Of a stretch of 49,534 nt of DNA, positions 1-37,770 are shown one piece after another. The translations under genes and the position numbers were made by a program. Under the pieces are notes generated by a model. It was not told the DNA's origin and made no database searches. It saw nothing but the letters and a program-made list of their open reading frames with translations. This stretch comes from Gammaproteobacteria bacterium (GTDB taxonomy: Bacteria > Pseudomonadota > Gammaproteobacteria > S012-40): contig JAOUJM010000009.1 in NCBI GenBank assembly GCA_029883265.1, positions 1 through 49,534 on the forward strand, read 5' to 3'. Position 1 is the first letter of the stretch, and each line of letters begins with the position of its first letter.

Positions 1-48
1 CGGGGTGGGATTTGTATGCTTACGGTATAAATTTTCCTTGGGTATTAG

Positions 49-224
49 AGGGTTGGCCGGGATTAAAACGAGATCCGCCGGTTCACGTATCAGTCTTTGA
101 ATAATGATGGTGAAACTCAAAAATTGAAACCAATTATCCCAAGAATATTCTTTACAATTTACTAAATGAATTCATTTGCTTGTATTAGTTTTTGGCGTAT
201 TTGACACGAATCCTGGCCAACCCT
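49..224. mobile_element. 176-bp MITE-like non-coding repeat, copy 1, with 16-bp terminal inverted repeats AGGGTTGGCC(G/A)GGATT
   Basis: Near-identical copy at 22489-22664 (same orientation) and truncated 27-bp copy at 12927-12953; left end agggttggccgggatt is reverse complement of right end aatcctggccaaccct; no ORF. Confidence 0.7.
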
Positions 225-385
225 GATTATCATTTTGATAAATCGCTTTGCATTCATTTCCTCGTGAGGTCACATGATACAACGCCCCAGCAAATTCAAT
301 TCGTAGTGGTCTCGCCATAATTTTAAATTTAGCTCATTTGTCGCTTAAGGCAAAAGACAAGACCTGCGTAACCCTGGTTTGTGTG

Positions 386-2038
386 TTAACTTTTACTCCA
401 ACGCATCTCTTGTGGAAGTATTGGCCAGCAATTTACGCCATGTTCATCAAGCGCGCACACTGTATCTTTGTGAATGTTTAATTGATGCGGATTACTTAAT
501 TGAGTATAACGACGACCATTGGGATAATATTTTCCCCAACAAAGCACGCTACCATCGTCCAAAGTGCAAATATGATTTTTTCCAATCACAACATTCGAAG
601 GACTAGTCAATGTTGGCGGTGTGAGTTGGGTCAATGCGCTGTCACCCCAACAATTAATCTGCCCATTGCTTAACGCACACAAATCCACTCCATTTCCAAT
701 GGCAAAATCACTTGCTTCTACTTCAAGTGGCATATTGGTTATTTCTTTACTGCACACGACTTTTGAATTGCTAATCGCACAACTGAAATAATTTTCAATC
801 TTTAAAACCGAAACATTTTCTAAACTCGCTAAGAAGTCTGCATCGTTTCGCGTTTCCCCCCAACACACGACGGAACCGCTATCCACCACACAAGCACTCT
901 CGTAATTCACGTTCAATTGGCTGGGCTCGCTGACGACAGGCGTGTTGAGTAATACTAACTCCCTCGACGGATTATTGATTAACTTCCAACATTGTAAGCC
1001 GTTGTCATCTAATGCACAGCTTGTCCGATATCCGAGACCAAGCTCACGTGGATGGGATAAATCGTCAGGCAAATAACGTTCGAAATTGAAACCCTGACTG
1101 CATTTAATTTGATTATTCCTGTCGATAACGCAACTGTTATAGTCATCAACGTCTAGGTAGATGCCAGCGTCTACCGCTGGTGGAAATTCAAGCTCATCAA
1201 CATAGGACTCACCCCAGCAAACAATACCTGAGGCATCTAGAGCACAAGTTCGCGATGCATATTGTACTGGGGCCTGCAACTCTGCTGGTACAGGACTAGC
1301 ACCAGAACAGCTTATTTTATTATCAATCACCGTGCAGAACTTACCACCATCTAAATTGATCAACGATAGCGTCGGTGTAAGTGTTGGATCAGACAATTCC
1401 CGTTTGATAACGCTCGAATCCGCATTCCAACAACTGATCGTTACTAAACTTTCAGCCAGTGTTACTGCGCACGCACTACTCGCTGCCGCACTAACAAAGC
1501 TCGGCCTGTCACGCAGCTGTGGAACTCTCTCTAGAACGCTGCTTTTGCTGTCCCAACATTTAACTTGATGGCGATCCAGTACGCAATTATGCGAACCAGC
1601 CACACTTATTTGCTTGGGATGATCCAAAGGTGGTACTTTCGCTTGATTGCTTTCACCCCAACAAACGACTTTGCCGCGCTCTAACGCGCAGGAGTGTCGA
1701 GCACCCGCTTTTACTTGTATTGGATTCTTCAATGCAGGGACATCGGTCTGTCCCCAGGTGTTATTACCCCAACAACTCACGCCATCTTTGTGTAAAACAC
1801 AGGCGTGCTCTGAACCAACACTAACTTGTATCGGATGCTCAATCTTCGGTTGCTGTTCTCCGAAAAATTTACCCCAACAAATCAATTCTTGTTGATGAAT
1901 TCCACAACCATTGCGTCCATAATCGCTGATCAGTTCATGGGGGTATATAAAGACTTCGGTTTGCTTTGCACCCGAGCCGCAAGCCGTTAATACAAGCGTT
2001 AAAATCGCGAAAATAAGAATGTACGAACATTTAAACAT
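386..2038 (-). CDS. RCC1-repeat (beta-propeller) lipoprotein
   Basis: N-terminal lipobox MFKCSYILIFAILTLVLTAC; at least 7 tandem repeats of the pattern H/N-xC-ALxxxGxVxCWGxNxxGQ typical of RCC1/ATS1 repeats (CWG motif recurring every ~50 aa). Confidence 0.6.
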   Translation of the reverse strand: MFKCSYILIFAILTLVLTACGSGAKQTEVFIYPHELISDYGRNGCGIHQQELICWGKFFGEQQPKIEHPIQVSVGSEHACVLHKDGVSCWGNNTWGQTDVPALKNPIQVKAGARHSCALERGKVVCWGESNQAKVPPLDHPKQISVAGSHNCVLDRHQVKCWDSKSSVLERVPQLRDRPSFVSAAASSACAVTLAESLVTISCWNADSSVIKRELSDPTLTPTLSLINLDGGKFCTVIDNKISCSGASPVPAELQAPVQYASRTCALDASGIVCWGESYVDELEFPPAVDAGIYLDVDDYNSCVIDRNNQIKCSQGFNFERYLPDDLSHPRELGLGYRTSCALDDNGLQCWKLINNPSRELVLLNTPVVSEPSQLNVNYESACVVDSGSVVCWGETRNDADFLASLENVSVLKIENYFSCAISNSKVVCSKEITNMPLEVEASDFAIGNGVDLCALSNGQINCWGDSALTQLTPPTLTSPSNVVIGKNHICTLDDGSVLCWGKYYPNGRRYTQLSNPHQLNIHKDTVCALDEHGVNCWPILPQEMRWSKS

Positions 2039-2262
2039 CGAATTTTTCTCAGTTCAGGATTGCCCATGCATCATCAAAAGCTTACGAAACCCGTTTGCGA
2101 GTGAGGGTGTGAGCTTCAGCGTTTCGTTTCGAATTGATTTAAATGACCGGGCAAACTTTTTATTAAAATAGTTGCATGACTAATTTTCCAAGCAAAACTA
2201 TTATCGCATATATTTTAATGTTATAATAGATCAAATTATAACCATCGCCATAAGCGGATTTC

Positions 2263-3375
2263 ATGATGTCCCGTATCTTTTTCCTTACCCTATTGTTTTA
2301 TATTACTTTTTCCCCTGCGTATGGCGCAGTAGATTACAGCCAATTTAGCTACACGCCACTCGATATAGGTCATCAGGGTCGTCTTCCCAGCGAGATACAA
2401 TTCATTAAAGACGGCGAGTTATCGCAAGCAGCTTATTTTTATCAGCTTCCTCGTTATGAGAAAAAACACCGTATAATCATTAACAGTCTGGTAAAAAAGA
2501 AGCAGGTTTTCTTTCCAAAAATACTATTGCTTTCTGAAAATTTCGACGTATTAGCTGAGCTGAATAATCAGCCTAAAATTTCGAGTAGCTTGACCCATGG
2601 ATTTTCCATTGGCTACAAATTCGAGATTACACCTGCTTACCGCTATATTGTTTTAGTCGCTGACCAAGCATATTTAGGCAAGAACATCCGACACACCTAT
2701 AAGGTAGCGCGAATGTATCCTCTGGTTCCGCTTTATATGAATCTACTTTTGCCCGCAAAAACTTATGTGCTCAACGCCGAAATTGTTGATCACGGACAAT
2801 TTGTTTTCTTTTTGCCATATGAAAAGAACTATGCACCGGCAATTAAACCGCATGCGCCGTCATTTGGCGTTTTTACCGGCTTCGGTCAAAACCAACTTTT
2901 TGTGAGTAACGAAATGACCCCCTATAGTGCGGGTGATGCAGCGATCGCACAACTGGGTTACCGCAATCGTCTATTCAATTTTGCTGACTGGAGTTATCGG
3001 GCGGATATAGGTTATAAGTTTTTTAATTCGGACGTGGAAGTCAGCGCAATAAACTTACAAACCTATCTCATCTATGAATTATTTAATTTCTCAAACATCG
3101 GTGTGGAATTGGGCGCTGGTGTTAATTTGGATTTAAATCATCGAGTGACTGACGTAAACGATGAGAATCTCCTAATTTATTATTATGAAGAAACCACGCC
3201 ACGCAAACTTCAGTTTAAAAATGCAATTGGACCAGCGGTATTCCTCGGATTTCAGTACGAAGGCGCACTTGAAATGAAATTGCATTATATGAAAATGAAT
3301 TACAAAACAAATAATGGGCTAAGCTTTGACGGCTCGCATGCTGGCATTTCAATAAACATACACTTTGGGATTTAA
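2263..3375 (+). CDS. hypothetical exported protein, probable outer-membrane beta-barrel
   Basis: Signal peptide MMSRIFFLTLLFYITFSPAYGA; aromatic-rich alternating pattern; C-terminus GISINIHFGI. Confidence 0.4.
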   Translation: MMSRIFFLTLLFYITFSPAYGAVDYSQFSYTPLDIGHQGRLPSEIQFIKDGELSQAAYFYQLPRYEKKHRIIINSLVKKKQVFFPKILLLSENFDVLAELNNQPKISSSLTHGFSIGYKFEITPAYRYIVLVADQAYLGKNIRHTYKVARMYPLVPLYMNLLLPAKTYVLNAEIVDHGQFVFFLPYEKNYAPAIKPHAPSFGVFTGFGQNQLFVSNEMTPYSAGDAAIAQLGYRNRLFNFADWSYRADIGYKFFNSDVEVSAINLQTYLIYELFNFSNIGVELGAGVNLDLNHRVTDVNDENLLIYYYEETTPRKLQFKNAIGPAVFLGFQYEGALEMKLHYMKMNYKTNNGLSFDGSHAGISINIHFGI

Positions 3376-3645
3376 TGATTTAGGCGCATTAAGGTATAAT
3401 GAATGGCTTTACCGGTGAGTGTTTTTGGCGGGACGTGTTGACTGGATTTTTCCAGCCAGGTTTTGAATTGCTCGATGTGGGTTTTGAGTATTGTTGTCGT
3501 GCTTGATGTTCTTGTTCGGGTGTCGCATCTTTAGTTTCTGTTTCGAAGGCGTAGAGTGTTTTAATAAAGGCTAAGCCCTGATGGGCAGGTTCAGTTTACC
3601 GATTTTACATATCTAGTTTGCGAATGTGTCTCGATCAAAATTCAC

Positions 3646-4008
3646 TTGAACACGTTTTCACATAGACATTGGTATGCAGACAACAATGAAGGCAAGCCCA
3701 CTTTTGGAAGGGCAAAGCCCCAGCGCTCAAGAACCTTAATTACGAATCGAACCACAGGTAAACCTGCCACCAAGAATGAAATCCGAACAGATTATGATGC
3801 TGTTGAAAAACAATATAAGAAATTTCTCGCTGATCCCAATAGTTTTAATAAAGAGGGCCAATTTAATATTGGCGCCGATGCCTATGAATCAGTGACAAAA
3901 CTAAGCATCACCGAAGCAGAAGCTGATCGGATATTGGCAATCGATATGCGCGACTTTGAAAAAGAACTCAGTCAACATTATAAGGGTTCCTTTCAATTTC
4001 TCTTTTAA
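3646..4008 (+). CDS. hypothetical protein (weak phage-lysozyme-like segment)
   Basis: 120-aa ORF; segment SITEAEADRILAIDMRDFEKEL weakly resembles GH24 lysozyme region; overlaps 3' end of minus-strand gene; may be fragment. Confidence 0.25.
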   Translation: MNTFSHRHWYADNNEGKPTFGRAKPQRSRTLITNRTTGKPATKNEIRTDYDAVEKQYKKFLADPNSFNKEGQFNIGADAYESVTKLSITEAEADRILAIDMRDFEKELSQHYKGSFQFLF

Positions 4009-4777
4009 TAAATTGCCCAAACCACCACCATTTATATCTTACGTCTTCAGATAGTGCACGTTCTACATTGTTCTCTACAGTTTGAAGATATCCTTCGTAT
4101 GTTGCCGTGGTACCTTGAGATGATTCATCCTGAATATAGAAGTCGTGTAACCCGTTAACTATAACTTTATCGCAATATTCCAAACACATACTATTGCTTG
4201 AGTACTCCGATTTATTCCAGTGATCGATTGCAGTAGATGAAAGTTCGACGCATGGAACCACGACTTTCTGTTCAATCATGTATGCTTCTTGATATGCGAC
4301 ACCCACTATATTGGATTCTGTATGCCACACATTACCGATGGAAATGCCACCACGAATTAGGTAACCCTTATCCAAGAGAATGTGAGTTAACTGAATTACC
4401 CGCATAACCAAAATTGACAATCCATTATAACTTTTCCTTTTGTCAGAAGTTAGTGGCGCGCTCAAAATAATACAATCAGAAATATAAATATGTTTTGGTA
4501 TTAATTCGGAAGGAACGTTCTGATCGACAGAACCATCTAAGTTAGGAACAGCAGTGGACAGGATGGTGATGAGTGACTCTAATTCTGAAAAAACTTTTTG
4601 CTCTGACTCTGCCTCGGCAACTACAGATTTAAAGCCAAGCACATCGATAAATGCCACAGCTCTAATTTCAAATTCAACTTTATTGTTCATTGTGCCACCA
4701 AAATATTTTTGATAGACGGCCCATAGAATTGCGGCAAAAACGATTGCACCGATAAAGTAAATTAATATCACCACCAT
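3968..4777 (-). CDS. membrane-anchored palm-domain nucleotide cyclase-like protein (class III cyclase/GGDEF-like fold, divergent)
   Basis: N-terminal TM helix VVILIYFIGAIVFAAILWAV; motif AFIDVLGFKS (F-x-D-x-x-GF, metal-binding Asp block of class III cyclases / D-x-x-x-FK of GGDEF), second block HIYISDCIIL, then LIRGGISIGNV...VGVAYQEAYMIE resembling lrIGihtG...GdtVNlAsRle with substitutions at canonical catalytic positions. Confidence 0.4.
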   Translation of the reverse strand: MVVILIYFIGAIVFAAILWAVYQKYFGGTMNNKVEFEIRAVAFIDVLGFKSVVAEAESEQKVFSELESLITILSTAVPNLDGSVDQNVPSELIPKHIYISDCIILSAPLTSDKRKSYNGLSILVMRVIQLTHILLDKGYLIRGGISIGNVWHTESNIVGVAYQEAYMIEQKVVVPCVELSSTAIDHWNKSEYSSNSMCLEYCDKVIVNGLHDFYIQDESSQGTTATYEGYLQTVENNVERALSEDVRYKWWWFGQFIKREIERNPYNVD

Positions 4778-5080
4778 TATTTTCTGCGCCTAGGGGTTTC
4801 GTGTCCATTCCCTCGAAATGTTGGGAACATCCGAAACAAAACTCTAATTCTATCCATAAGTTTAGCAAAAATACTTAGCAATACAAAAAACTTGATGAGA
4901 ATATTCTTTCCCATTTTTTCATTAAATTTTGGAGCGAAAATTGGGAAACTATTTTAGTCAATTTAGAAAAAGTACTACCAAACTTCGAACAACTGAACGT
5001 CTTCGATGATCCTCGTCATCAAATCGAAAACATGCGTCGTGGTCACATATATTCGAATAACACGAAGACTCGCTCAGTGG

Positions 5081-5311
5081 CTACACGATTTTGAAGCCAA
5101 TAAAAAGCATGGCCAGTCGCATCCACAGACGGAAATTCCATGCACTGGTTAAGTTGAGGTTGATTACATCACAGAGTTCGCCTTTAAGTTTGTTGCGTGG
5201 ATACGTGTGCATTGATTTTAATGGAATGACACAGATTTTTGAACACTTCCCACTTGATATCGTTCCAATCTTTCCACCTGAAAATTTCGTTTTATCCAAT
5301 GTAGAGGGCAA
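5081..5311 (-). pseudogene. displaced remnant of an RHS C-terminal toxin tail (recombination footprint)
   Basis: Translated segment LDKTKFSGGKIGTISSG duplicates the extreme C-terminus (LDNVIDNTKFSGGKIGTITSG) of the upstream RHS toxin ORF; nucleotide repeat 5270-5311 vs 5776-5820. Confidence 0.5.
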
Positions 5312-5324
5312 ACTCTGACACTAA

Positions 5325-5696
5325 TTATTTTATAGGACTTTTTCTGCGGTGAGAATTTATAACTCCAATAAAAGCAAAAACACCCAGAAAAGGAGATACT
5401 GTGTAAACATAAATTAGGGTTTTAGGATTATCAAAATATGCAATTGCTAAACTTAATGTGATCGTTATTATTAGAAGTAGTGGAAGAAAGATGTTGTTGG
5501 TAGCTATGGCAATTTTGTGTTTTGCCAATTCTACCGCTAGATAAATAATTGAAAATATATTTATTATCATCGCAATAGTAAAAATTGTTGATTTCACATT
5601 GAATGTGTCCTTATAGATTAAGTAAATAAATATAAGCCACCCTATTATGTAGAATCCGTATTTTTTATTTAACAAGTATTTCTCTATTGCATTCAT
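5325..5696 (-). CDS. putative RHS toxin immunity protein (small 4-TM membrane protein)
   Basis: 123 aa, four hydrophobic helices, gene immediately downstream (1-bp gap) of the RHS C-terminal toxin ORF on the same strand, classic toxin-immunity arrangement. Confidence 0.5.
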   Translation of the reverse strand: MNAIEKYLLNKKYGFYIIGWLIFIYLIYKDTFNVKSTIFTIAMIINIFSIIYLAVELAKHKIAIATNNIFLPLLLIITITLSLAIAYFDNPKTLIYVYTVSPFLGVFAFIGVINSHRRKSPIK

Positions 5697-5697
5697 A

Positions 5698-7026
5698 TTA
5701 CTGATCCTGATCGATTGATAGCTGATTCTTGATACTTATCCCAGTACTAATTACACCGCTGGTAATAGTACCTATTTTCCCACCAGAAAATTTCGTATTA
5801 TCAATAACATTATCAAGGGGTTTCGCCATTATGTTTGTGCCGATAACATCTTTTGCGACATTGTCAAACAATTCACTCCCACTCTTCGCCTCTTGAGAAT
5901 CAAGACGCACTGCATTCTTCGTCGCTTCAGCACCAATTGAAACCGCTGCTTCTGTTGAGATTTCCATGGCCATTTGTTTGGACTTCGCCATTTTGGCAAG
6001 CGTTGCGGTTTTCTTGATTTGGTTTACCAAGCCTGCACCGACTGCACCCGCTACAGTTGAAGTGACTACCGAACCAACACTAAACTCATCACGCAATCCG
6101 AGTTGCATTTCTGCAGCTTGCGTAGCGACGTCGAGCACACCTGCGATCACAGCGGTTACTAGGAAATTTCCATCGGGATCCGTATATCGTATTGGATTGT
6201 TCCCAGTATAAGCATAGACATTATTATTCGCCGTGTTCAGTACACCCCCTAAGCCGGGTAAATTGTAGGAAGCTTGCCAGTCATTTTCTAAACGTGGCAC
6301 ATTAAACTTCGTCGATTTATTACTATTCGGAAAATATTTACTAAACGCAGGATCCGGACTAATCCAAGTAGAAACTCTTGGATCGTAATAACGCGCTCCG
6401 AAATAATAATACCCGGTTTCACTATCGAGTTCTTTGCTGGTAAACAAATACGGCGTGACTTTATTGTTTCCGCCTTCTTGATACCAGGTCTCACCAAACG
6501 GAAAGTATTCGACATGTTCGTGAATATCTCCCTCTTCATCGGTCACATAACTGGTGGAGCCCAAATGATCCGGATGGAAAAAGTATAGCTGATCATCCGT
6601 CGGTCCGATCACAATGATTTGTGCATCATGTATCGTGCCGTCTTCGTTTTGGATGGGGGCATCAGGATCGGTTTGACCCGGTGTGCCACCTTGGTAATAC
6701 GGGCTGTTGGGATCATCGAGTAAGTATTGTAGATTTGGGTTTTTGTTAACGTTCTGTGCGACTTCATTGGCTCGGTCTGAGCGATGTTCTAGGCCTTGAC
6801 CCGGATGATTACCATCTTGGAATTGCTTCGCGCCTTTGCCGTTGCTAGGGGCTTTGCCGTTTTGTTTTTTGCTCTGGCCTTTGCCTTTGTCGTGGCCAAG
6901 TTTTTTGCCTTTGCCATTGGTTTTATCCACGGCTTTGCCTTGGCCAAGGTTTCTTGGTTTATCATTGGCGCCAGTGTAATTGTCATCCGTCTTGAATAAG
7001 TAGCAACTTAGGAATTGCCACAACAC
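5698..7026 (-). CDS. orphan RHS-repeat core / C-terminal toxin module (N-terminally truncated)
   Basis: Contains RHS core end motifs YFFHPDHLGSTSYVTDEEG...FPFGE...TPYLFTSKELDSETGYYYFGARYYDPRVSTWISPDP and YAYTGNNPIRYTDPDGNF followed by ~170-aa Ala/Gly/Val-rich C-terminal domain; only ~240 aa upstream of core (Lys/Gly-rich low complexity), so not a full-length rhs. Confidence 0.75.
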   Translation of the reverse strand: MLWQFLSCYLFKTDDNYTGANDKPRNLGQGKAVDKTNGKGKKLGHDKGKGQSKKQNGKAPSNGKGAKQFQDGNHPGQGLEHRSDRANEVAQNVNKNPNLQYLLDDPNSPYYQGGTPGQTDPDAPIQNEDGTIHDAQIIVIGPTDDQLYFFHPDHLGSTSYVTDEEGDIHEHVEYFPFGETWYQEGGNNKVTPYLFTSKELDSETGYYYFGARYYDPRVSTWISPDPAFSKYFPNSNKSTKFNVPRLENDWQASYNLPGLGGVLNTANNNVYAYTGNNPIRYTDPDGNFLVTAVIAGVLDVATQAAEMQLGLRDEFSVGSVVTSTVAGAVGAGLVNQIKKTATLAKMAKSKQMAMEISTEAAVSIGAEATKNAVRLDSQEAKSGSELFDNVAKDVIGTNIMAKPLDNVIDNTKFSGGKIGTITSGVISTGISIKNQLSIDQDQ

Positions 7027-7183
7027 CGTCTGCTTTTACAATCCCATGCATCTGCGGGGCACGAACGAAAAAATACCCAATTGCCGCAAGAAAAGATGAG
7101 ATAAATATGAAATACCAAATTAACCCTGAATAGCCAGCATACCCTGCTAGCCCAAACCCTACTAGAAATGATACATTACCCAT
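6983..7183 (-). CDS. small 2-TM membrane protein, possible orphan immunity protein of preceding (lost) toxin cassette
   Basis: 66-aa ORF with two hydrophobic helices directly upstream of orphan RHS module. Confidence 0.25.
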   Translation of the reverse strand: MGNVSFLVGFGLAGYAGYSGLIWYFIFISSFLAAIGYFFVRAPQMHGIVKADGVVAIPKLLLIQDG

Positions 7184-7379
7184 GGCTTTTTCCTGTTTTT
7201 TCTGCTATGGCGAGATAACCAACATATACTGCATTGTTGTCGACAGAAAAGGACTAGATTTTAATGCCATACAGTATTTTCCATTATTTTTTCAATTGAT
7301 TTTCACCTAAATCATCGAAAAATGAACAATTTTTGCATTTTTCACTTGTAAATATATATGCAGTTGCATATATTTAACT

Positions 7380-7757
7380 ATGAAGAAAGTTACTGAAAAG
7401 CCGCTATATTGGATAGGCTCTTCTTTAGAGGATTTGAAAAAATTCCCAGAAGGGGTTAAGGATGTTATGGGGTACTCTTTAGACGTTGCCCAAAGAGGTG
7501 TTAAGGCAGACAATGCCAAACCTCTTGCAAACGTTGTAAAGGGAGGACGCATCTTTGAAGTTTATGATGACCATAAGGGCGACACATACAGAGCTGTTTA
7601 TACAGTGAAATTTGAAAAAGCTGTATATGTTCTTCACGCTTTCAAAAAGAAATCTAAATCAGGTATAGCTACACCCAAACCCGATATAGACACCATGAGA
7701 GCAAGGTACAAAAAAGCCGAAGAGCACTATGCAAAGAATTTCGGCGGCAAAAAATAG
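7380..7757 (+). CDS. higB: type II toxin, Gp49-like / HigB-RelE-ParE superfamily
   Basis: 125 aa; motif AVYVLHAFKKKSKSGIATPKPDIDTMRARYKKAEE matches phage Gp49-like (DUF891/PF05973) toxin C-terminus; followed 11 bp later by XRE antitoxin. Confidence 0.65.
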   Translation: MKKVTEKPLYWIGSSLEDLKKFPEGVKDVMGYSLDVAQRGVKADNAKPLANVVKGGRIFEVYDDHKGDTYRAVYTVKFEKAVYVLHAFKKKSKSGIATPKPDIDTMRARYKKAEEHYAKNFGGKK

Positions 7758-7767
7758 AGGCAGGAAA

Positions 7768-8109
7768 ATGAGCAAAAAAGCTGAAAAAATAGAAGTAACT
7801 GAAGGTAGCGGCAATGTGTTCGCTGACCTTGGTTGCGCTAATCCAGAAGAATTAAAACTCAAAGCTAAAATTGCATCCTCTATCAATTCAATTTTGAAAC
7901 ATAGAGGAATCACACAAGCGCAAGCGGCTAGAGTTTTAGGGATTAATCAACCTGATGTTTCTAATCTTAAACGAGGAAATCTGAAACACTTTACTGTAGA
8001 GCGTCTTTTTGAGCATCTAAACTCTCTAGGTAGAGATGTTGAAATACGCATCAAAAAGAAAAACCCTCGTACAAAGCGCGAACCACATATTCAAGTGGTA
8101 GCGGCATAA
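7768..8109 (+). CDS. higA: XRE-family HTH antitoxin (HigA-like)
   Basis: HTH QAQAARVLGINQPDVSNLKRG; conserved tail NLKHFTVERLFEHLNSLGRDVEIRI typical of HigA partners of Gp49-like toxins; ORF track start 7729 but likely true start ATG 7768 just after toxin stop. Confidence 0.6.
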   Translation: MSKKAEKIEVTEGSGNVFADLGCANPEELKLKAKIASSINSILKHRGITQAQAARVLGINQPDVSNLKRGNLKHFTVERLFEHLNSLGRDVEIRIKKKNPRTKREPHIQVVAA

Positions 8110-14893: not shown

Positions 14894-16339
14894 CTAATTA
14901 CTTAACAAGATACTGGAAATGTCCTCATCGCTTTGACACTCTGGCAACCGCCCAAACACCTCCACCAAATACTCATAAGGATTCACTCCCAAACTTTTAC
15001 ACGACGCCAACAACGAATAATAAATCGCAGCCGCACGACCACCCCGATCCGAGCCGATAAATAAAAAGCTTTTTCTTCCAACGGCGATGGGTCGGATGTG
15101 TTGTTCAGCCAGGTTGTTGTCGATGGTGAGATGTCCGGCATCGAGATACCGAATCAGACCATGCCACTGATTGAGCAAATAAGTAAAGGCTTTACCTAAA
15201 CTGGTCTTGGGTGGAATGTTTGGTGCGTGTTGTCGTCGATAGGCTTTGCGTTTCTTGTTGCTAAAATGTTTGCAGGCTTTTTCGATGGCATAGAGTAGTT
15301 GAATATCATCAAGCAGATGTTTTGCTTTACCTGCTTGCTTAGTGAGTTGTGATGCTTCAAAAAACTTTCGGCGCACATGGGCCCAACAAGCCACATAATG
15401 TATATTATCGGATTCATGCAGTGATCGATACCCAGTATAGCCATCGGCATGCTTATAGCCGTGGTAATCAGATAACCAGTCCTTCGGCCATTTGGATGAT
15501 CGATTATTGGTATAATCAAAAACAACCAAAGGCGGATCTTTGAGTGGACCACCGATGTACACCCAGAGCCGCGCTTGCATGATTTTGTTTCGCTTGGAGT
15601 CATTATTTTGTTTGGGCAGAATGGTGTCATCGGTCCAAATTCTTGGGCCGGATAACACTTGCTTTTTCATTAACTCATAAATTGGTTCCAGTTGATCGGC
15701 TGCTTTCAGTAAGAGCGTACTCATGGTTGAACGCGGTAAATGCACGCCTTGACGCGCTAGTTGTTGTTGAATGCGATACAAAGGTAAACCATCGCCAAAC
15801 TTACTCACAATGAGATGCGCGAGTAAACTCGGTGTGGCAAAGCTTTTAGGTAATATAAAGCTGGGTAATGCCGGTCGTTTAATGGTGTCTTCACAGGATT
15901 TGCACGCATATTTTAATCGAGCGTATTCGACGACTTGGACTTTCGCTGGGATAAATTCAATCTTTCGAGTTATGTCTTCACCGATTTTGGTCAACGGAGT
16001 GTTACAGCAATCGCAGGTCTTATCGTGTTCATCCAGATCAATCTCAACTCTACGTTTGGGTAGATCCTTAGAAAACGTCAGTCGTTGTCGTTTCTTGTGA
16101 TGATGCGCAAGTACGACAATGTTATTGTTGTGGTGTGTTGAATGAGTCGTTTCCGGCTTTGGCGAACCCACGTCAAATAACGATAACTGATCATCCGTCA
16201 TCTGTTCGGACTTCGCAGCAAACTGTCGATGCAACAACAAACGATTTTTCTCTCGAAGCAGGTTCACTTCTTTTTGAAGTTCAACCACAAGTGCTTCGAG
16301 TTCAGAATAAGAATAGCGTGTTTGTGTACTTGCCTGCAT
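14894..16339 (-). CDS. IS66-family transposase (orf3)
   Basis: Zn-finger CDCC...CKSC, GDGLPLYRIQQQLARQGVHLPRSTMSTLL and DDE region typical of IS66 TnpC. Confidence 0.85.
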   Translation of the reverse strand: MQASTQTRYSYSELEALVVELQKEVNLLREKNRLLLHRQFAAKSEQMTDDQLSLFDVGSPKPETTHSTHHNNNIVVLAHHHKKRQRLTFSKDLPKRRVEIDLDEHDKTCDCCNTPLTKIGEDITRKIEFIPAKVQVVEYARLKYACKSCEDTIKRPALPSFILPKSFATPSLLAHLIVSKFGDGLPLYRIQQQLARQGVHLPRSTMSTLLLKAADQLEPIYELMKKQVLSGPRIWTDDTILPKQNNDSKRNKIMQARLWVYIGGPLKDPPLVVFDYTNNRSSKWPKDWLSDYHGYKHADGYTGYRSLHESDNIHYVACWAHVRRKFFEASQLTKQAGKAKHLLDDIQLLYAIEKACKHFSNKKRKAYRRQHAPNIPPKTSLGKAFTYLLNQWHGLIRYLDAGHLTIDNNLAEQHIRPIAVGRKSFLFIGSDRGGRAAAIYYSLLASCKSLGVNPYEYLVEVFGRLPECQSDEDISSILLSN

Positions 16340-16369
16340 GGCGCTATTGTAATGCAGGTTAGTCCAGAA

Positions 16370-16726
16370 TCAAGTCACGGATGTGTAATGCAGTGCGGGT
16401 AATCGTTTTAGCTTCGTAAAATCAATACCGTCAAATAGCAAATCCAACTCTTGACGGGTGATCGAAAGGTGGGTGCAATCGTCCAACTCAGGAAACTTAA
16501 AACGACCACGCTCGAGTCTTTTGTAGTAAATGGTAAAGCCATTGCGATCCCAGATCAGTAATTTAATCTTGTCGGCGGCTCTATTGCGAAACACAAACAA
16601 ATGCCCCGATAATGGGTTTTGCTCGATCACATCCACCACTAACGATGCCAAACCATCAAAGCTTTTTAGCATATTGATGGGATGAACCGCGAAATAGATT
16701 TTAACTTCTCGATCTAGTTTGAGCAT
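16370..16726 (-). CDS. IS66 Orf2 (TnpB-like accessory protein)
   Basis: MLKLDREVKIYFAVHPINMLKSFDGLASLV...LLIWDRNGF matches IS66 orf2 family. Confidence 0.85.
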   Translation of the reverse strand: MLKLDREVKIYFAVHPINMLKSFDGLASLVVDVIEQNPLSGHLFVFRNRAADKIKLLIWDRNGFTIYYKRLERGRFKFPELDDCTHLSITRQELDLLFDGIDFTKLKRLPALHYTSVT

Positions 16727-17076
16727 GAAGCACGCATCAAGGTCTCAATCCAACGTAAACCCTCTGCGGGTGAGCACGACACTGGCAAGGAAATTACACA
16801 ACCGTTAGGAAGATCAATCCGAATCATCTCGTTGGATGAGGCTGGAGACACCGGCACCGTCTCCAACTTAGCCGGAACAAACAAAGCCGAGGTCTTGGCC
16901 AGTTTCTTCTCCCACTTAAAAAACGTCGCCGCTGAAAGTCCGTGATGCTTGCAATAACCGGTTTTAGTCAAACCACTTTGCTTTAACGCATCCATATGCG
17001 CCTGCCAATACTCAGGGCCTTTGCTTCGTTTATGGGTGCGAATGTTTTTGATGGATGAATGAGTGAGATCGCTCAT
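16714..17076 (-). CDS. IS66 Orf1 (TnpA-like HTH accessory protein)
   Basis: YWQAHMDALKQSGLTKTGYCKHHGLSAATFFKWEKKL matches IS66 orf1. Confidence 0.8.
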   Translation of the reverse strand: MSDLTHSSIKNIRTHKRSKGPEYWQAHMDALKQSGLTKTGYCKHHGLSAATFFKWEKKLAKTSALFVPAKLETVPVSPASSNEMIRIDLPNGCVISLPVSCSPAEGLRWIETLMRASCSN

Positions 17077-21015: not shown

Positions 21016-21054
21016 TATACCCCATTTCTCGGACAGAGAAATGGGGTATAGGTC
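21016..21054. repeat. perfect 17-bp-stem hairpin (CCTATACCCCATTTCTC ggaca GAGAAATGGGGTATAGG)
   Basis: Seen directly in intergenic region between OMP gene and fic. Confidence 0.5.
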
Positions 21055-21185
21055 ATAGGGATAACTACGATCGCCCACATGGCTCGGTGCGTGGGGTTGC
21101 TTGTGATTTTATGGTGACACAGAGTTTTGAACAACCCCCCCTAGAATAAACACTATATTCGAATCATAATACCCTTGTATTTGAT

Positions 21186-22328
21186 TTGATTAAACACTAT
21201 ATTCAAATCATGAAATACAATTGGCAGCAACCAGACTGGACCGATTTTAACTACGATATCAAAGGCGTACAGGATATTTTGTTTGCTTTTGCTGAAAAGA
21301 CCGGACAAGTCAACGGTATCATGAAAAGCCTTCCTGGCACGATTCAAACCGATGCGGTCATCGACATTATGGTCTCTGAAGCTATTAAAACATCGGCAAT
21401 TGAAGGCGAGAATCTTAGCCGTTCCGATGTCATGTCCTCCATACGCCATAATCTTGGGCTCGATGCTAGTCCTTCCCTTGCTGTGGATAGACGAGCCAAA
21501 GGTGTGGCGGATCTTATGGTCGATGTACGTCACTCGTTTCAAGATCCGCTGACCGAAGCCACACTTTTTAAATGGCACGAAATGCTGATGAGCGGCCAGC
21601 GCAGAAACTTACCGGTCGGCATGTGGCGTAGTCATAAAGAACCCATGCAAGTGATCTCCGGAGTGATTGGAAAATGGAAAGTCCATTTTGAAGCACCGCC
21701 ATCTGATCAGGTTCCGCAAGAAATGATCAGATTTATAGACTGGTTTAACAAAACTGCCCCAAGCGCGGCGGAAGAAATCAAAAATCCTGTGATACGTTCC
21801 GCGATCGCTCATTTGTATTTTGAAAGCATTCATCCATTCGAGGATGGGAATGGCCGAATTGGTCGAGCCATTTCAGAAAAAGCACTCTCTCAAGGACTGG
21901 GCCGCCCCACCCTATTAAGTCTTTCCGACGCAATCGAAACAAAGAAGAAAGACTACTACAGCGCCTTAATGAATGCTCAAAAGTCTAATGAGATTACCCA
22001 CTGGATTAAATATTTTTCAACCACTGTACTTAGCGCTCAGATGATGGCGGAAGAAAAAATCGAGTTTATTCTTAATAAAACTAAATTCCTTGATCACTTC
22101 AAAGACCAGCTGAATGATCGTCAATTAAAAGTGATTCATCGAATGTTCGATGCAGGGGTACCAGGCTTTGACGGTGGAATGACACAAAAAAAATATGTCG
22201 CAATAACCAAAACATCAACTGCCACAGCGACTCGTGATCTAAAATATCTAGCCGACATCGGTGCGCTAAAACAAGTCGGCGGTGGTCGCAGTACCCGGTA
22301 TGAGATTGATTTCTGTTTTAATCGATAG
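21186..22328 (+). CDS. fic: Fic/DOC family protein (putative AMPylase)
   Basis: Canonical Fic motif HPFEDGNGRIGR within 380-aa protein; C-terminal winged-helix-like tail. Confidence 0.8.
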   Translation: MIKHYIQIMKYNWQQPDWTDFNYDIKGVQDILFAFAEKTGQVNGIMKSLPGTIQTDAVIDIMVSEAIKTSAIEGENLSRSDVMSSIRHNLGLDASPSLAVDRRAKGVADLMVDVRHSFQDPLTEATLFKWHEMLMSGQRRNLPVGMWRSHKEPMQVISGVIGKWKVHFEAPPSDQVPQEMIRFIDWFNKTAPSAAEEIKNPVIRSAIAHLYFESIHPFEDGNGRIGRAISEKALSQGLGRPTLLSLSDAIETKKKDYYSALMNAQKSNEITHWIKYFSTTVLSAQMMAEEKIEFILNKTKFLDHFKDQLNDRQLKVIHRMFDAGVPGFDGGMTQKKYVAITKTSTATATRDLKYLADIGALKQVGGGRSTRYEIDFCFNR

Positions 22329-32677: not shown

Positions 32678-33846
32678 CCCGATCTGACAGTTACCCGTTT
32701 TTTAAGATGCCTGTCAGTTTAGATTTGAGCTATATTTTTTTCCACCCAAATCTTTTTCCCGTCAAGTAAAGTTGCTTGGGGTGTTTTCCCAAGACATTTC
32801 TTACCTTGATGGGTTCGTTCATTGTTATAGTATTCGATCCATTCGTCCAGATCTTTTTGCAAGTCCTCCATGGTTGAGTATAGTTTTTTCCGAAATGTAA
32901 TCTGATAAAATTCGTTTAAGATCGTTTTGTGAAAACGTTCGCAGATCCCATTAGTCTGCGGTGACATGGCTTTTGTCTTGGTGTGGTCAATGTCATTAAT
33001 CGCTAAATACAATTGATAATCATGCTGTTCCACGCGACCACAATATTCCGTCCCACGATCCGTCAAGATTCGTAGCATGGGGAGTTTATGGCTTTCAAAA
33101 TACGGCAGGACTTTGTCATTGAGTAAGTCGGCAGCTGTTATCGGTGTCTTCGACGTGTAGAGCTTGGCAAAGGCCACTTTACTATACGTGTCGACAAAAG
33201 TTTGTTGATAGATGCGATCGACTCCCTTGAGGTTGCCGACATAAAAGGTGTCTTGCGACCCCAGATAGCCTGGGTGCTGCGTTTCTATCTCGCCACTGAC
33301 TTCATCATCATGCTTTTTCTTTTCCAATGCAGCGACCTGTGCATCGCTGAGAATGATGCCGTCCTTCGCTACTTTTTCCTCAAGTGCTTTCAGCCGCTTT
33401 TTGAAATTCTCAAGATTGTGACGCAACCAAACGGAACGCACACCACTACCAGAAACAAAAACGCCTTGTTTGCGCAACTCATTGCTAGTGCGGTGTTGGC
33501 CATGGGCAGGCTGCTCAATCGCATAGGTGATGACCGCTTGTTCAACCACCTCGTCAACTCGATTTTTGTGATTTGGGACACGTCGATTCTTGTCAACTAA
33601 AGCGTCGATCCCACCGTCTTCCACGAGCTCTTGATAGCGATAAAACGTGTCCCGAGACACGCCCATTACTTTACAGGCTTTGGAAACATTACCTAATTCT
33701 TCCGCCAAATTGAGTAATCCGGCTTTGTGTTTAATAATAGGATTGTTAGTATGTATCATTGAGAGTTACCTTTTGTTTTGAAATAAAGATTCGACACCTT
33801 TATCAAAACGGGTAACTCTCTTCTTGTCAATTCGAAGTGTCAGATC
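32678..33846 (-). mobile_element. IS481-family insertion sequence
   Basis: Single transposase gene flanked by imperfect IRs gatctgaca...gttacccgtttt (32681-32701) and reverse complement at 33805-33846 (right IR carries a 21-bp insertion). Confidence 0.7.
32719..33759 (-). CDS. IS481-family DDE transposase (rve integrase core)
   Basis: N-terminal HTH (KACKVMGVSRDTFYRYQ), DDE/rve region ILTDRGTEY...NGICERFHKT...YNNERTHQG. Confidence 0.85.
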   Translation of the reverse strand: MIHTNNPIIKHKAGLLNLAEELGNVSKACKVMGVSRDTFYRYQELVEDGGIDALVDKNRRVPNHKNRVDEVVEQAVITYAIEQPAHGQHRTSNELRKQGVFVSGSGVRSVWLRHNLENFKKRLKALEEKVAKDGIILSDAQVAALEKKKHDDEVSGEIETQHPGYLGSQDTFYVGNLKGVDRIYQQTFVDTYSKVAFAKLYTSKTPITAADLLNDKVLPYFESHKLPMLRILTDRGTEYCGRVEQHDYQLYLAINDIDHTKTKAMSPQTNGICERFHKTILNEFYQITFRKKLYSTMEDLQKDLDEWIEYYNNERTHQGKKCLGKTPQATLLDGKKIWVEKNIAQI

Positions 33847-34495: not shown

Positions 34496-37400
34496 CCTCT
34501 AAATCGTTGGGGACCCTACTTTGGGGTGCTAGGGACATATCGTCCGCACGTAACAATTATCGCTACAGCCCCTGTCACATATAGAGTCTAGAGGGGCTTC
34601 AATTTCAAAAATTTCAATACCGTCGTTTACTTTAAGGTATTATTGGGCCTTTTGGACAATTTATGGCCTTCAAAGAACGGCTCACCATTCTTCTCGAACC
34701 CAAAATCAGGGATCTTTACCGTGTCCCGGTATTATCACTTGAGCAAAAACGAGTGTGTTTTGCATTAAACGATCTCGAACTGACTTGCATAGCAACCATA
34801 AGAGACAGAAATCAAAAGTGTTTTGCGATTGCACTCCTTGGATACTTCAAGGTAAAACCAATTACACTTAATCCCCGGTTTGGTGATGTGCAATCTGATC
34901 TATTTTTCATTGCAAAGGAATATTTTCCCAAGTTTAGTGTTCCGCGTTTTAGTGTAAATCGAATGCAGAGAGTGCGGCTATATCAAAAAGTTCTCGATGT
35001 ATTGGGTTTCAAAAACTGGGCTACTTCCAATGAACTCGAATTATTTAAGCATTTGAAATCAATTGCCAACTCTTGCATTGAACCACGTTATCTTTTCGAT
35101 GCTGGTATTGAATACCTTGCTCAAAAACATATTGCTAGCCCAAAATATACCGTACTTCAACAGATAATCAGTAAAGTAATTACTGCTGAGAAACAGCAAA
35201 TCGACACGATGCTAAAAACAGTAATGCCCCCTAGTTTATCGACTGCACTGAATGAGCAGATCTTTAGTGATACGTCGACCACTTTACGTGATGTTCGTCG
35301 GTCAGCCAAAAGCTTTACACCGGCAGAGCTGGAAAAAGAACTCAAAACTTATGATCATATTTGTTCATGGGTGGACGATATTGACCTGATTAGTGGGCAA
35401 CTAAATCTATCAATTAAGAATCAGCAACACTTTGCATCCATGGTTGATTATTACACTTTAACCAAGCTAAAGCGCTTTGATCGCGGGACTCAACAACTTT
35501 ATTTGATTTGCTATTTGCAGGAGCGACATCAACTTATCGTAGAACACCTGGCTGATGGTTTTATCTATCATACTCGTAAGCTCTGTGAGCAAGCCAAAAT
35601 TTATGCAAAAGAAACAGCCTACCTGGATTGGCAAGGTGCGGCTTCGAATGTGGGTAAAGCTGCAGATCTGTTACGCTTCTTTATCGATGATGATATTGAC
35701 GGCACACTGCCTTTTGAAACCGTGCGGGAGCAAGCTCAAGATTTATTAAAAGCGAGGGACATTGAATCATTGTGCCTGTATTTATCAAAACAAAAACGAG
35801 CCTTGGATGATTATGTTTGGGAATACTATGATCAGAAGACGGATCTAATTGAACGTCTATTACGACCGATTTTTTTATCTTTGGAATTCCAAGCATCAAC
35901 AACAACTCAAACCTTAGCATCACAAATTGCAGTATCCCAACGGGAACTCCAAACCTCACAATCACTCCTTACTTTCGATCGTCGATTGATACGCCCAAAA
36001 CAGCAGCCATATGTAGTGATTGATAATAGTGTCAATGAAAACCGATTTGAAATCCTGCTATATCTTATGGTGCAAAGTAAGCTAGACGGTCAGCTCTACA
36101 TACCGAACGCCATAAAATATCGCGCACTGCAGGATGATCTGATCAGTGACGAGGTATGGAAAGGCAAGAAAAAACTGATTAAAAACTCGATGCTGCCGCG
36201 CATCGATACTGCACCCAAAAAACTCATGGGCACGATGAACAAGACGCTCTCAAAAAAGCTAAATGATGTCAGCGAACGGATTGAGAATGGTGATAATGAG
36301 AATGTCATCTTGCGCAACCGAAGCGGCAAGACTCAATGGCGACTACCCTCGACGGGCGCAAAAAGCATGCTCAATAATCCATTTTTTGAACAATTGAAAC
36401 CAGTCAACATTGCCGACCTATTGCGACTTATAGATAAAGAAACTGGCTACCTAGCATGTTTTGAACACGTGCGACAAATTCAGACTGATCAGCGTTTTTA
36501 TGTAAATGACTTGCTAGCCGCTATAATCGGTAACGGAACCAATTACGGTATTTATGGCATGGCCAGTATTTCAGATCGCAGTTATGAACAGCTGCGAACA
36601 ACCCAAGCTAACTACCTCCGTCCTGAAACGCTTAATCAAGCGAACGACACCATTAATAATGGCATCGCTAATCTTGAAATCTTCAAGCACTACAATATTC
36701 AAGAAGGCTTGGTCCACGCCAGTGCTGATGGCCAAAAGTTTGAGTCGCGCTTAGAAACGTTTAAAACGCGATACTCATCGAAGTACTTCGGCACCAACAA
36801 AGGCGTTTCCGCACTGACACTCATAGCCAACCATGCGGCTCTGAATGCAAGAGTGACTGGATCGAACGAACATGAACCTCACTACATCTTTGACTTGCTT
36901 TATAACAACACATCTGAGATCAAACCAGACGTTTTATCGACAGATACGCACGGCGTAAACCATGTGAACTTTGCACTCTTAGATCTGTTTGGATACACCT
37001 TTGCTCCAAGGTATGCGCAATTTGGTAAAGTGATTGAAGATATGTTTGTCATCAATGAGAAAGACAATCAGAAACCAATGCTGTCACTAAAAAAACCAAT
37101 CAATACTCAGCTGATCGAGCAAGAATGGGAAACGATCCAACGAATCATCATTTCTTTACAACGAAAAACAATGACACAAGCAACGCTAGTGCGGAAACTT
37201 TCAGGTTACAGTAAAAATCATCCTTTACTACAGGCATTAACGGAATACAATCGGATGATCAAAGCCATGTACATCCTGGATTATATCGATGATGCTAGCT
37301 TGCGAAGGTATGTGCAACGCGCACTGAATCGTGGAGAAGCCTATCACCAACTACGCCGTGCGATTGCTTCAGTAAATGGAAACCGATTCAGAGGCTCATC

Positions 37401-37770
37401 GGATTATGAAATCGAACTTTGGAACGAATGTGCCAGGCTATTGACCAATGCTATCATCTATTTCAACTCCCTAATCCTAAACCACTTGCTCATTTATTTT
37501 GCAGACAACGGCGATGAAGAAAAACTCGAACTAACAAAAATGGTATCACCAGTAGCCTGGTATAATATAAATCTGAACGGAACATACAGTTTCAGCTTTG
37601 AACAAAACTTGCTCGATATTATAGAAATTATGAAACCATTGACTGAAAATCAGGAAAAAGGAAATTGAAGGGGCTCTGTAAGCTATGGATACCAAGGGCT
37701 GTAGCGATAATTGTTACATGCGGACGATATGTCCCTTGTACCCCAAGTAGGGGCCTCAAGAATTTAGAGG
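34496..37770 (+). mobile_element. Tn3-family single-gene transposable element with long (~110-bp, imperfect) terminal inverted repeats
   Basis: 34496-34606 is reverse-complement of 37661-37770 (core GGGGTGCTAGGGACATATCGTCCGCACGTAACAATTATCGCTACAGCCCC nearly perfect); right IR overlaps tnpA stop; no resolvase or cargo. Confidence 0.75.
34663..37668 (+). CDS. tnpA: Tn3-family transposase TnpA
   Basis: 1001 aa; C-terminal Tn3 signature VLSTDTHGVNHVNFALLDLFGYTFAPRYAQFG (DTHG...F-PR) and overall size typical of Tn3 TnpA. Confidence 0.8.
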   Translation: MAFKERLTILLEPKIRDLYRVPVLSLEQKRVCFALNDLELTCIATIRDRNQKCFAIALLGYFKVKPITLNPRFGDVQSDLFFIAKEYFPKFSVPRFSVNRMQRVRLYQKVLDVLGFKNWATSNELELFKHLKSIANSCIEPRYLFDAGIEYLAQKHIASPKYTVLQQIISKVITAEKQQIDTMLKTVMPPSLSTALNEQIFSDTSTTLRDVRRSAKSFTPAELEKELKTYDHICSWVDDIDLISGQLNLSIKNQQHFASMVDYYTLTKLKRFDRGTQQLYLICYLQERHQLIVEHLADGFIYHTRKLCEQAKIYAKETAYLDWQGAASNVGKAADLLRFFIDDDIDGTLPFETVREQAQDLLKARDIESLCLYLSKQKRALDDYVWEYYDQKTDLIERLLRPIFLSLEFQASTTTQTLASQIAVSQRELQTSQSLLTFDRRLIRPKQQPYVVIDNSVNENRFEILLYLMVQSKLDGQLYIPNAIKYRALQDDLISDEVWKGKKKLIKNSMLPRIDTAPKKLMGTMNKTLSKKLNDVSERIENGDNENVILRNRSGKTQWRLPSTGAKSMLNNPFFEQLKPVNIADLLRLIDKETGYLACFEHVRQIQTDQRFYVNDLLAAIIGNGTNYGIYGMASISDRSYEQLRTTQANYLRPETLNQANDTINNGIANLEIFKHYNIQEGLVHASADGQKFESRLETFKTRYSSKYFGTNKGVSALTLIANHAALNARVTGSNEHEPHYIFDLLYNNTSEIKPDVLSTDTHGVNHVNFALLDLFGYTFAPRYAQFGKVIEDMFVINEKDNQKPMLSLKKPINTQLIEQEWETIQRIIISLQRKTMTQATLVRKLSGYSKNHPLLQALTEYNRMIKAMYILDYIDDASLRRYVQRALNRGEAYHQLRRAIASVNGNRFRGSSDYEIELWNECARLLTNAIIYFNSLILNHLLIYFADNGDEEKLELTKMVSPVAWYNINLNGTYSFSFEQNLLDIIEIMKPLTENQEKGN

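Follow-up and report, generated by a model that had tools for sequence, protein, structure and literature searches.

An orphan Rhs fragment with its own candidate immunity gene and a putative membrane-directed toxin tip in an uncultured gammaproteobacterium

Contig JAOUJM010000009.1, part of a metagenome-assembled genome (MAG) of a gammaproteobacterium (GCA_029883265.1), contains a short rhs open reading frame (ORF) on its minus strand, directly followed by a small gene for a putative membrane protein. The stretch analysed covers positions 1 to 49,534 of this contig and is called the window below. The question raised by the locus is whether the rhs ORF is the broken end of an ordinary gene, a relic in decay or an orphan module that can still be put to use, and what kind of toxin its tip could be. 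The explanation judged fairly probable as a whole is that of a 5'-truncated orphan rhs module, consisting of a core, a DPDGN motif, a tip of 155 amino acids (aa) and a cognate immunity gene, which would serve as a silent reservoir of a membrane-directed tip. The module is made up of the following parts (nt, nucleotides; TM, transmembrane):

6983 to 7183, minus strand: ORF66, a small two-helix membrane ORF (by hydropathy) that marks the 5' breakpoint
5698 to 7026, minus strand: orphan Rhs fragment ORF, 442 aa from the GTG at 7026, Rhs-derived from about nt 6990
6350 to 6990, minus strand: conserved core common to the other rhs copies (83-92% DNA identity), the putative recombination substrate
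6166 to 6180, minus strand: DPDGN motif (residues 283-287), presumed autoproteolysis boundary, as read from the sequence
5701 to 6165, minus strand: toxin tip, 155 aa after DPDGN, with an N-terminal helical hairpin, a helical middle and a small-residue zipper tail (GGKIGTITSGVISTGIS)
5325 to 5696, minus strand: candidate immunity gene imm123, 123 aa, its ATG 1 nt past the toxin stop

The ORF clearly belongs to the Rhs family. It matches TIGR03696 (Rhs_assc_core) with 59.2 bits against a cut-off of 32.5 and carries the core motifs GARYYDPRVSTWISPDP and NPIRYTDPDGNF; the match to PF03527 remains sub-threshold (17.4 bits vs. 27.9). The solved structures nearest to residues 132-245 are TccC2, TcdB2-TccC3, YenC2 and RHS2, with Tse5 weaker: its chains 8cp6 and 9i9y align only to core residues 144-245 (E = 4.9e-4). 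About 640 nt of conserved core are kept, corresponding to the last ~270 residues of the shell/core region. No YD/RHS-repeat shell was found N-terminal to this core in the window, the upstream sequence being scanned in every frame. The fragment is thus a piece of an Rhs family member and not a complete one, and the loss of the shell is as expected for an orphan. No ATG start is available: the only candidates are the GTG at 7026, which overlaps ORF66, and the GTG at 6930, from which the JGI call of the same fragment (P0001, 410 aa) starts.

The 5' end of the Rhs-derived sequence is sharply defined. Three related proteins (P0002, P0003 and P0004) align to the window protein from residue 13 (TDDNYTGANDK, nt ~6990) and extend further upstream with Rhs sequence (…KHIFAGTSRMVSKLKGG…), and no Rhs similarity was detected upstream of 6990 in any frame of the window sequence. 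At this point, ORF66 ends, its stop codon sharing nucleotides with the first codons of Rhs origin. ORF66 has a good Shine-Dalgarno sequence (AGGA, 7 nt ahead of the ATG) and no family match in the Pfam, NCBIfam and PADLOC scans. The junction between ORF66 and the Rhs sequence recurs at 98.7-99.9% identity in four independent assemblies (L020, L022, L023 and L024), obtained from different samples and with different assemblers; therefore, it is neither a mis-join artefact nor the result of a sequencing frameshift. The truncation of this rhs copy at ~6990 is real. What lies upstream of the fragment in the window is ORF66 and a divergent HigB/HigA-like pair, no main rhs. No consensus promoter was found on the minus strand upstream of ORF66 or of the fragment. 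A tblastx search of 4780-5330 and 6980-7400 against all fetched loci gave no match.

The same organism harbors other rhs copies. The OEY38 locus tags of the MAG cover the window's 269-aa gene as well as P0005, P0006 and P0007, three Rhs core/tip fragments located on L009, L011 and L013, the cores of which are 88-92% DNA-identical to window positions 6350-6843. Over a wider set of loci (L002, L008, L009, L011, L013, L015 and the upstream copy of L016, L016up), the DNA identity of the core amounts to 83-92%. The copies cease to be homologous at 6316-6350, in most cases at 6350, directly behind WISPDP. In three assemblies of this locus, the contig breaks off, at 6683, 6379 (L018) and 6370 (L019), as expected at a repeat.

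The most informative of these loci is L016, which is 99.2% identical to window positions 6843..1 and differs upstream. Its contig opens within the core of a second Rhs gene, of which only the end is present (TIGR03696, 62 bits) and whose tip, CTx, is not that of the window; next is a 220-aa gene that matches Sel1 only faintly. The orphan then starts with 'FHHKPNSGTSKETIYI', shows an internal deletion and a frame change and continues into the window's core, tip and imm123. The order is, hence, Rhs core, CTx, Sel1-repeat gene, orphan, imm123. In L009, CTx, the Sel1-repeat gene and the deleted orphan 5' end are arranged as in L016, but the sequence behind them codes for another tip (P0015) and for a membrane protein of 192 aa. 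The same tip is thus found in two 5' contexts, and a single 5' context is found with two tips, as expected if recombination runs through the core.

The distribution of the differences between L016 and the window is consistent with such exchange. Of about 57 differences, 50 fall in 6841-6070, which corresponds to 6.5% divergence in this region vs. 0.1% elsewhere. Forty-one of the 50 lie at or above 6371 and are grouped in patches, and the alleles of each patch occur in other copies: 6841-6658 matches L009b, 6633-6607 matches L009a, and both 6565-6550 and 6388-6371 match L016's own upstream copy. This patchwise allele sharing between cores points to gene conversion. L019 shows the remaining nine differences (6298-6070) as well, which means that there are two alleles of the tip region. 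A simpler origin, one crossover between the two cores of an L016-type tandem, was rejected for the window, since the upstream core of L016 is only 89.7% identical to that of the window. In both alleles, the frame is open over ~430 codons, and synonymous codon differences outnumber non-synonymous ones, 32 to 10 overall and seven to two in the variable part. The coding sequence looks maintained.

The preliminary description of this DNA, made from the sequence alone, had read the ORF as an N-terminally truncated RHS module, part of an orphan rhs-CT/immunity array that can swap tips by recombination with a full-length rhs gene elsewhere. This is borne out: the quoted motifs are present, the breakpoint lies at ~6990, and the orphan reading is supported by the other rhs copies under the OEY38 tags, by the array of L016 and by the junction in four assemblies. 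The ORF does not continue upstream into a full-length rhs gene of which it would be the 3' end. Recombination is supported by the L016 and L009 data and by contigs that break at the edge of the core.

The parent of the module, on the contrary, probably differs from the one supposed at first. A full-length rhs gene linked to a type VI secretion system (T6SS) had been considered, and no VgrG, PAAR/prePAAR, Hcp, EagR or Tc component was found in the ORFs scanned, eight next to the module and 20 of those with at least 100 aa at 10.5-48 kb. These encode a LytS/LytTR pair, IS66, Fic, SPFH, RtcB, HNH, an rve transposase, Tn3 and flagellar genes. The full-length relatives of the clade, 39-52% identical to the window protein, combine SpvB, TcdB_toxin_midN, FG-GAP and RHS repeats. 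In L007 (3,729 aa) and L012 (>2,852 aa), these lie in a single giant protein, and in L001 they are divided between neighbouring genes. The parent is therefore probably of the TcB/TcC-like type rather than T6SS-linked.

The tip itself has hardly any counterpart in the databases searched. No match was obtained in Pfam, NCBIfam, PADLOC or the PDB, where a profile search with the family alignment described below (A1) gave only noise. An exhaustive HMMER scan of 1.84 billion representatives yielded five weak hits, all with E >= 1e-4. No enzymatic family matched the tip, which the preliminary description had called unlike nuclease or deaminase tips. A hydrophobic C-terminal domain of ~170 aa had been described: the domain is there, yet it measures 155 aa and is not hydrophobic in the transmembrane sense, with a mean hydropathy of 0.18 and no window >= 1.6. 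It is rich in Ala, Val, Gly, Ser and Thr, and its charge is balanced (14 K+R, 16 D+E). The AlphaFold 2 (AF2) model is all-helical with six helices; its confidence (predicted local distance difference test, pLDDT) is 83-92 for residues 1-40 and 53.7 on average, and a Foldseek search of the PDB with this weak model gave no match. Three small-x3-small zipper runs are present in the tip, and the one in the tail is also kept in a downstream relic, described below.

A local jackhmmer iteration joins the tip with 13 other Rhs/YD tips (alignment A1). The family shares an N-terminal module, 'IGAxIGAxxDxxxQ…FSxxSVxxSAxxGAxGVGL', and a 'GGxIGSG'-like C-terminal tail. Compared with its non-enzymatic relatives, the window tip is 30-45 aa shorter and is devoid of their basic middle 'ADRAERIANNPKVGRP' segment. 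Three of the related non-enzymatic tips (P0026, P0022 and P0019, on L001, L003 and L004) are each followed by a 4-TM protein of 114-121 aa. In other members, the first ~65-100 aa of the family (63-102 residues) are reused before other C-terminal domains (P0106, P0088 and P0014): P0106 (L006) adds a domain that, judged by eye from its HAE…PCxxC motif, is likely a deaminase, P0088 (L005) adds another one, and the downstream proteins of both are soluble. This reuse suggests that the N-terminal part is a modular entry or linker element, and in TcB/TcC-like antibacterial systems, the hairpin might precede enzymatic tips (deaminases, for instance) as a membrane-entry module. It is conceivable, although doubtful, that the tip belongs to an undescribed family of Rhs/YD-borne helical membrane toxins, paired with 4-TM immunity proteins of ~115-125 aa and spread over Gammaproteobacteria MAGs and other uncultured lineages.

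The same MAG or population contains further tips of a comparable kind, on L009, L011 and L002/L008. Those of P0002, P0006 and P0015 are Ala/Gly-rich and non-enzymatic, and they are followed by multi-TM proteins of 142, 188 and 192 aa; membrane-directed tips seem to dominate the rhs repertoire of this organism.

The gene behind the tip, imm123, encodes a protein with three strong hydrophobic segments in a 17/19-residue Kyte-Doolittle scan and a fourth, N-terminal stretch (residues 14-29) read by eye, in line with the four TM segments initially assigned to the candidate immunity protein. The protein is 100% identical beside the same tip in L016 to L019, i.e., in five assemblies including the window. 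No homologues besides itself were found, and the scans of Pfam, NCBIfam and PADLOC returned nothing meaningful. Kinship with the 4-TM proteins beside the related tips was considered and rejected (BLASTP E = 0.48; hhalign probability 1%). Among the latter (beside P0026, P0022 and P0019), two of the three pairs are significantly similar.

Two remnants of rhs sequence were recognized in the window, the first of which directly adjoins imm123:

5240 to 5320, minus strand: toxin-tail relic, matching toxin residues 401-427 and starting 5 nt after the immunity stop
21052 to 21108, minus strand: second tiny Rhs relic, NHKQPHAPSHVGDRSYPYD, 19 aa, ~14 kb away

In the first, positions 5250-5296 repeat 5756-5802 with 36 of 47 nt identical. 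The mismatches fall mainly at third codon positions, and none of 200 shuffles attains the observed score; by tblastn, relic and toxin share 59% identity over 27 aa (E = 2e-4). Such a pattern of third-base mismatches is that of two diverged coding copies, so the relic is the remnant of a diverged tail allele. The similarity ends past '…GTISSG', and only ~80 nt of the 231-nt (76-aa) ORF are homologous. The repeat reported in the preliminary description thus exists, with a different extent: it corresponds to residues 401-427 of 442 rather than to the last ~17 residues, and to ~80 nt rather than 230 bp. Likewise, small membrane ORFs had been placed on both sides of the module; ORF66 upstream fits, whereas the 76-aa ORF has no hydrophobic segment, and Pfam, NCBIfam and PADLOC gave no meaningful match to it. 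The second relic was found by tblastn with 20 Rhs proteins (best E = 3.6e-5), adjoins a Fic gene (21186-22328, plus strand) and shares its NHKQPHAPSHVGDRSYPYD motif with decayed arrays of L002, L013 and L015. Rhs debris is scattered in this genome.

The following mechanism is proposed. The module would be a silent reservoir, from which homologous recombination in the core would graft the tip, together with its immunity gene, onto a full-length SpvB/TcdB/FG-GAP/RHS (TcB-TcC-like) gene. Regardless of toxin production, the immunity gene would protect the cell. The tip may be an alpha-helical, membrane-inserting toxin that dissipates the membrane potential, functionally like Tse5-CT or the ionophores of contact-dependent growth inhibition (CDI), and its neutralisation would take place in the bilayer, through the 4-TM immunity protein of the inner membrane. 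An older and diverged allele of this tip would have been displaced, leaving the ~80-nt relic behind. For the part concerning a depolarising tip neutralised in the bilayer by imm123, the chances appear about even. Membrane action is deduced from the lack of an enzymatic family, the helical prediction, the zipper runs, the adjacent 4-TM gene, the 4-TM partners of the relatives and the Tse5 precedent.

Several points weigh against the silent reservoir with a membrane tip. On the side of the reservoir, the full-length rhs of this genome was not recovered and its existence as a partner is deduced from partial copies. The rhs contigs all end within the repeated core, and the window itself has no main rhs upstream. 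A scan of genome contigs returned one distant locus (L007, 52% identity) and no close genome, and a scan of metagenomes returned relatives that are at most 78% identical and no full-length partner. The underlying data are short-read metagenome assemblies, in which strain variants may be merged, and the mosaic patches could partly stem from such merging; however, they are much smaller than the assembler k-mer, which speaks against simple chimeras. On the side of the tip, the hydropathy scan revealed no TM-grade hydrophobic segment, and the AF2 model, predicted with high confidence over the first ~45 residues, is of low confidence for the remaining two thirds. Since the N-terminal part also precedes enzymatic domains, it may serve as a linker or in translocation instead of being toxic itself. 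Neither the PDB search with the A1 profile nor Foldseek gave homology to Tse5-CT, and imm123 resembles the 4-TM proteins of the relatives in size and topology only, without detectable homology. The main alternative to a membrane toxin is therefore that the hairpin is only an entry or linker module and that the short window tip is defective.

Against this background, the locus could be a decaying relic, the toxin part of which is never translated or grafted, with imm123 retained as an orphan immunity gene against the toxin of neighbours. This is possible, if rather doubtful. The missing ATG and minus-strand promoter would fit, as would the 5' end that decayed differently in two strains (cut at 6990 in one, deletion and frame change of L016 in the other), the relic at 21.1 kb as a sign of rhs decay in this genome and the complete conservation of imm123 in all five assemblies. 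The ~430 codons open in both alleles and the synonymous excess speak against it, and the recent exchange of core with other copies is what a usable reservoir predicts; the two readings also overlap, as a reservoir is silent as well. A far more radical objection, namely that the assembly is wrong or that a frameshift has set off the 3' end of an otherwise continuous full-length rhs, draws on the frequent mis-joining of metagenome contigs at repeats and on the rhs cores being repeated here; with the ORF66/Rhs junction present in four other assemblies and no Rhs similarity upstream of 6990 in any frame, it is extremely improbable.

As to the activity, the tip might not be a membrane toxin at all, being either a pre-toxin or translocation module with a short tail and no toxin domain, or a protein with an unrecognised soluble activity. 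The alignment of its N-terminal 63-102 residues to the tips P0106 and P0088, which have soluble downstream proteins, its shorter length without the basic segment and its modest hydropathy would agree with this, but the family-wide GGxIGSG-like tail is kept and is also part of what the relic preserves, the similar non-enzymatic relatives all pair with 4-TM proteins, and the synonymous excess in the tip suggests a protein still under constraint. This alternative is considered unlikely. Less probable still is that the orphan acts alone as an intracellular toxin-antitoxin-like pair. Such a role has been proposed for Salmonella orphan Rhs (PMC7043789). This precedent can be cited for it, as can the position of the module next to a HigB/HigA-like pair and of P0022 (L003) next to HipA/HTH, and ORF66, which has a good Shine-Dalgarno sequence and from which transcription and translation could proceed into the fragment. 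Its expression is only conjectural, however, and a membrane immunity protein and a recombining core fit a reservoir of polymorphic toxins better.

The closest known counterparts of the module are the orphan rhs-CT/rhsI pairs of Enterobacteriaceae (Poole et al. 2011, PMC3150448; Koskiniemi et al. 2014, PMC3967940), with which it shares a 5'-truncated core, a distinct toxin and its own immunity gene. As with those orphans, the L016 copy follows a further rhs tip/immunity pair, and the core shows signs of having recombined. The differences are threefold: in the window, ORF66 and the HigBA-like pair take the upstream place of a main rhs, the parent family is probably of the SpvB/TcdB/FG-GAP/RHS type instead of being PAAR/VgrG-linked, and the core homology stops ~55 aa before DPDGN and not at the motif.

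For the tip, the nearest precedent is Tse5 (RhsP1) of Pseudomonas aeruginosa with its immunity protein Tsi5 (PMC9637101, PMC10684867). Tse5-CT is a 149-aa Rhs tip without predicted function that inserts into membranes and forms cation-selective pores, and Tsi5 is an integral membrane protein (PMC9637101). An Rhs tip of ~150 aa, no predicted enzymatic fold and a membrane immunity protein are common to both cases. Unlike imm123 with its four TM segments, Tsi5 has two, and Tse5 is PAAR-like and VgrG4-linked. The functional analogy with Tse5-CT would not be affected by the missing homology. The alpha-helical CDI ionophores of the CdiA-CT(EC93) type (PMC11630599) are alike in their divergent helical tips, glycine-zipper-like motifs and small polytopic membrane immunity proteins and, as in the window family, combine a modular N-terminal part with a C-terminal effector part. 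On the contrary, they are delivered by CdiA and not Rhs-borne, the window tip has no VENN boundary, and the CdiI partners of CDI ionophores have two TM segments instead of four (PMC11630599). Their five-helix bundle compares with six AF2 helices here, of low confidence past residue ~45; a relationship to the tip is at most putative.

The Tc-toxin TcB/TcC cocoon (TcdB2-TccC3, YenB/YenC2) provides the best solved-structure matches to the core, and the relatives have a similar set of domains, whereas all that is left of the shell/core region in the window is its final ~270 residues. The occurrence of immunity genes and orphan arrays suggests that the targets are bacteria rather than insects. A comparable design is also found in pore-forming colicins, helical toxins that are neutralised in the inner membrane by an immunity protein with 3-4 TM segments. 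The arrangement of toxin and immunity protein is alike, the delivery route differs, and no sequence or fold similarity between colicins and the tip was found in the PDB profile search or with Foldseek.

Orphan rhs cassettes and membrane-depolarising Rhs tips are already established, and the overall picture is unchanged by this locus. It adds an uncharacterised toxin/immunity pair without a Pfam, PDB or fold match. It also offers a population-level snapshot of an uncultured, sediment-type gammaproteobacterium, in which the displacement/recombination model is illustrated outside enterobacteria. The apparent presence of orphan arrays and immunity genes with environmental SpvB/TcdB/RHS (Tc-like) proteins suggests that these are used between bacteria.

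Within the fragment, one further element stands out:

6817 to 6957, minus strand: Lys/Gly-rich low-complexity insert, residues ~24-70, with internal repeats of ~36-51 nt (families D1 and D4)

This insert (GKGKKLGHDKGKGQSKKQNGK…) lies between 'KHIFAGxSR' and 'YFFHPDHLGS' and is also present in P0002, P0003, P0004, P0013 and P0019; hence, although odd-looking for an Rhs protein, it belongs to this Rhs clade. In P0026, P0088 and P0106, its place is taken by a Gly/Asn-rich stretch. Further downstream, the first DP motif, SPDP (residues 224-227), precedes DPDGN by about 52 aa, compared with 37 aa in relatives; the classical Rhs aspartyl-protease motif reads DPXGL-(18)-DPXGL (PMC9637101). In the linker (6166-6355, minus strand), the window has an extra 'NSNKSTKFNVPRLENDWQASYNLPG' segment, and the DNA homology between copies stops ahead of it.

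The junction between toxin and immunity gene follows a common pattern. Unrelated tips nearly all end in (D/E/N/Q)-Q-stop, in the window (5698-5712) as well as in L001-L004, L009, L011, L013, L015 and L016, and the immunity ATG often overlaps the toxin stop (caATGa) or lies 1 nt beyond it. This arrangement could be a constraint of translational coupling or a shared 3' junction for cassette exchange.

The surroundings of the orphan are rich in accessory genes. The divergent pair that adjoins it (7380-8109, plus strand) consists of a HigB-like toxin (Gp49) and an HTH_37 antitoxin. A related standalone orphan, P0022, adjoins a HipA/HTH pair (L003, 2113-3697), and standalone orphans seem to be located in variable spots rich in toxin-antitoxin genes. 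Mobile elements are represented by IS66 (14894-17076, with two small upstream ORFs), an rve-type transposase (32719-33759) and a Tn3-family element (34663-37668). The region at 37.8-49.5 kb is a flagellar cluster (FliF, FliI, FlgE and a sigma-70-family factor); an assignment of the 38-49.5 kb operon to nuo, syntenic with L001, was dropped.

On the other side of the module, the 269-aa protein (3968-4777, minus strand, OEY38_02210) has one N-terminal TM helix and is found beside imm123 in all assemblies. It has no match in Pfam, NCBIfam, PADLOC or the PDB, and a cyclase-like nature, considered at one point, found no support in the family and structure searches. A 120-aa ORF on the opposite strand (3646-4008) overlaps its gene tail-to-tail. 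Next come a 370-aa protein with a weak MalM hit (2263-3375, plus strand) and a 550-aa RCC1-repeat protein (386-2038, minus strand) with a lipoprotein-like N-terminus, as judged by eye. Both the RCC1-repeat and the MalM-like genes are kept downstream of the module in L016 and L017.

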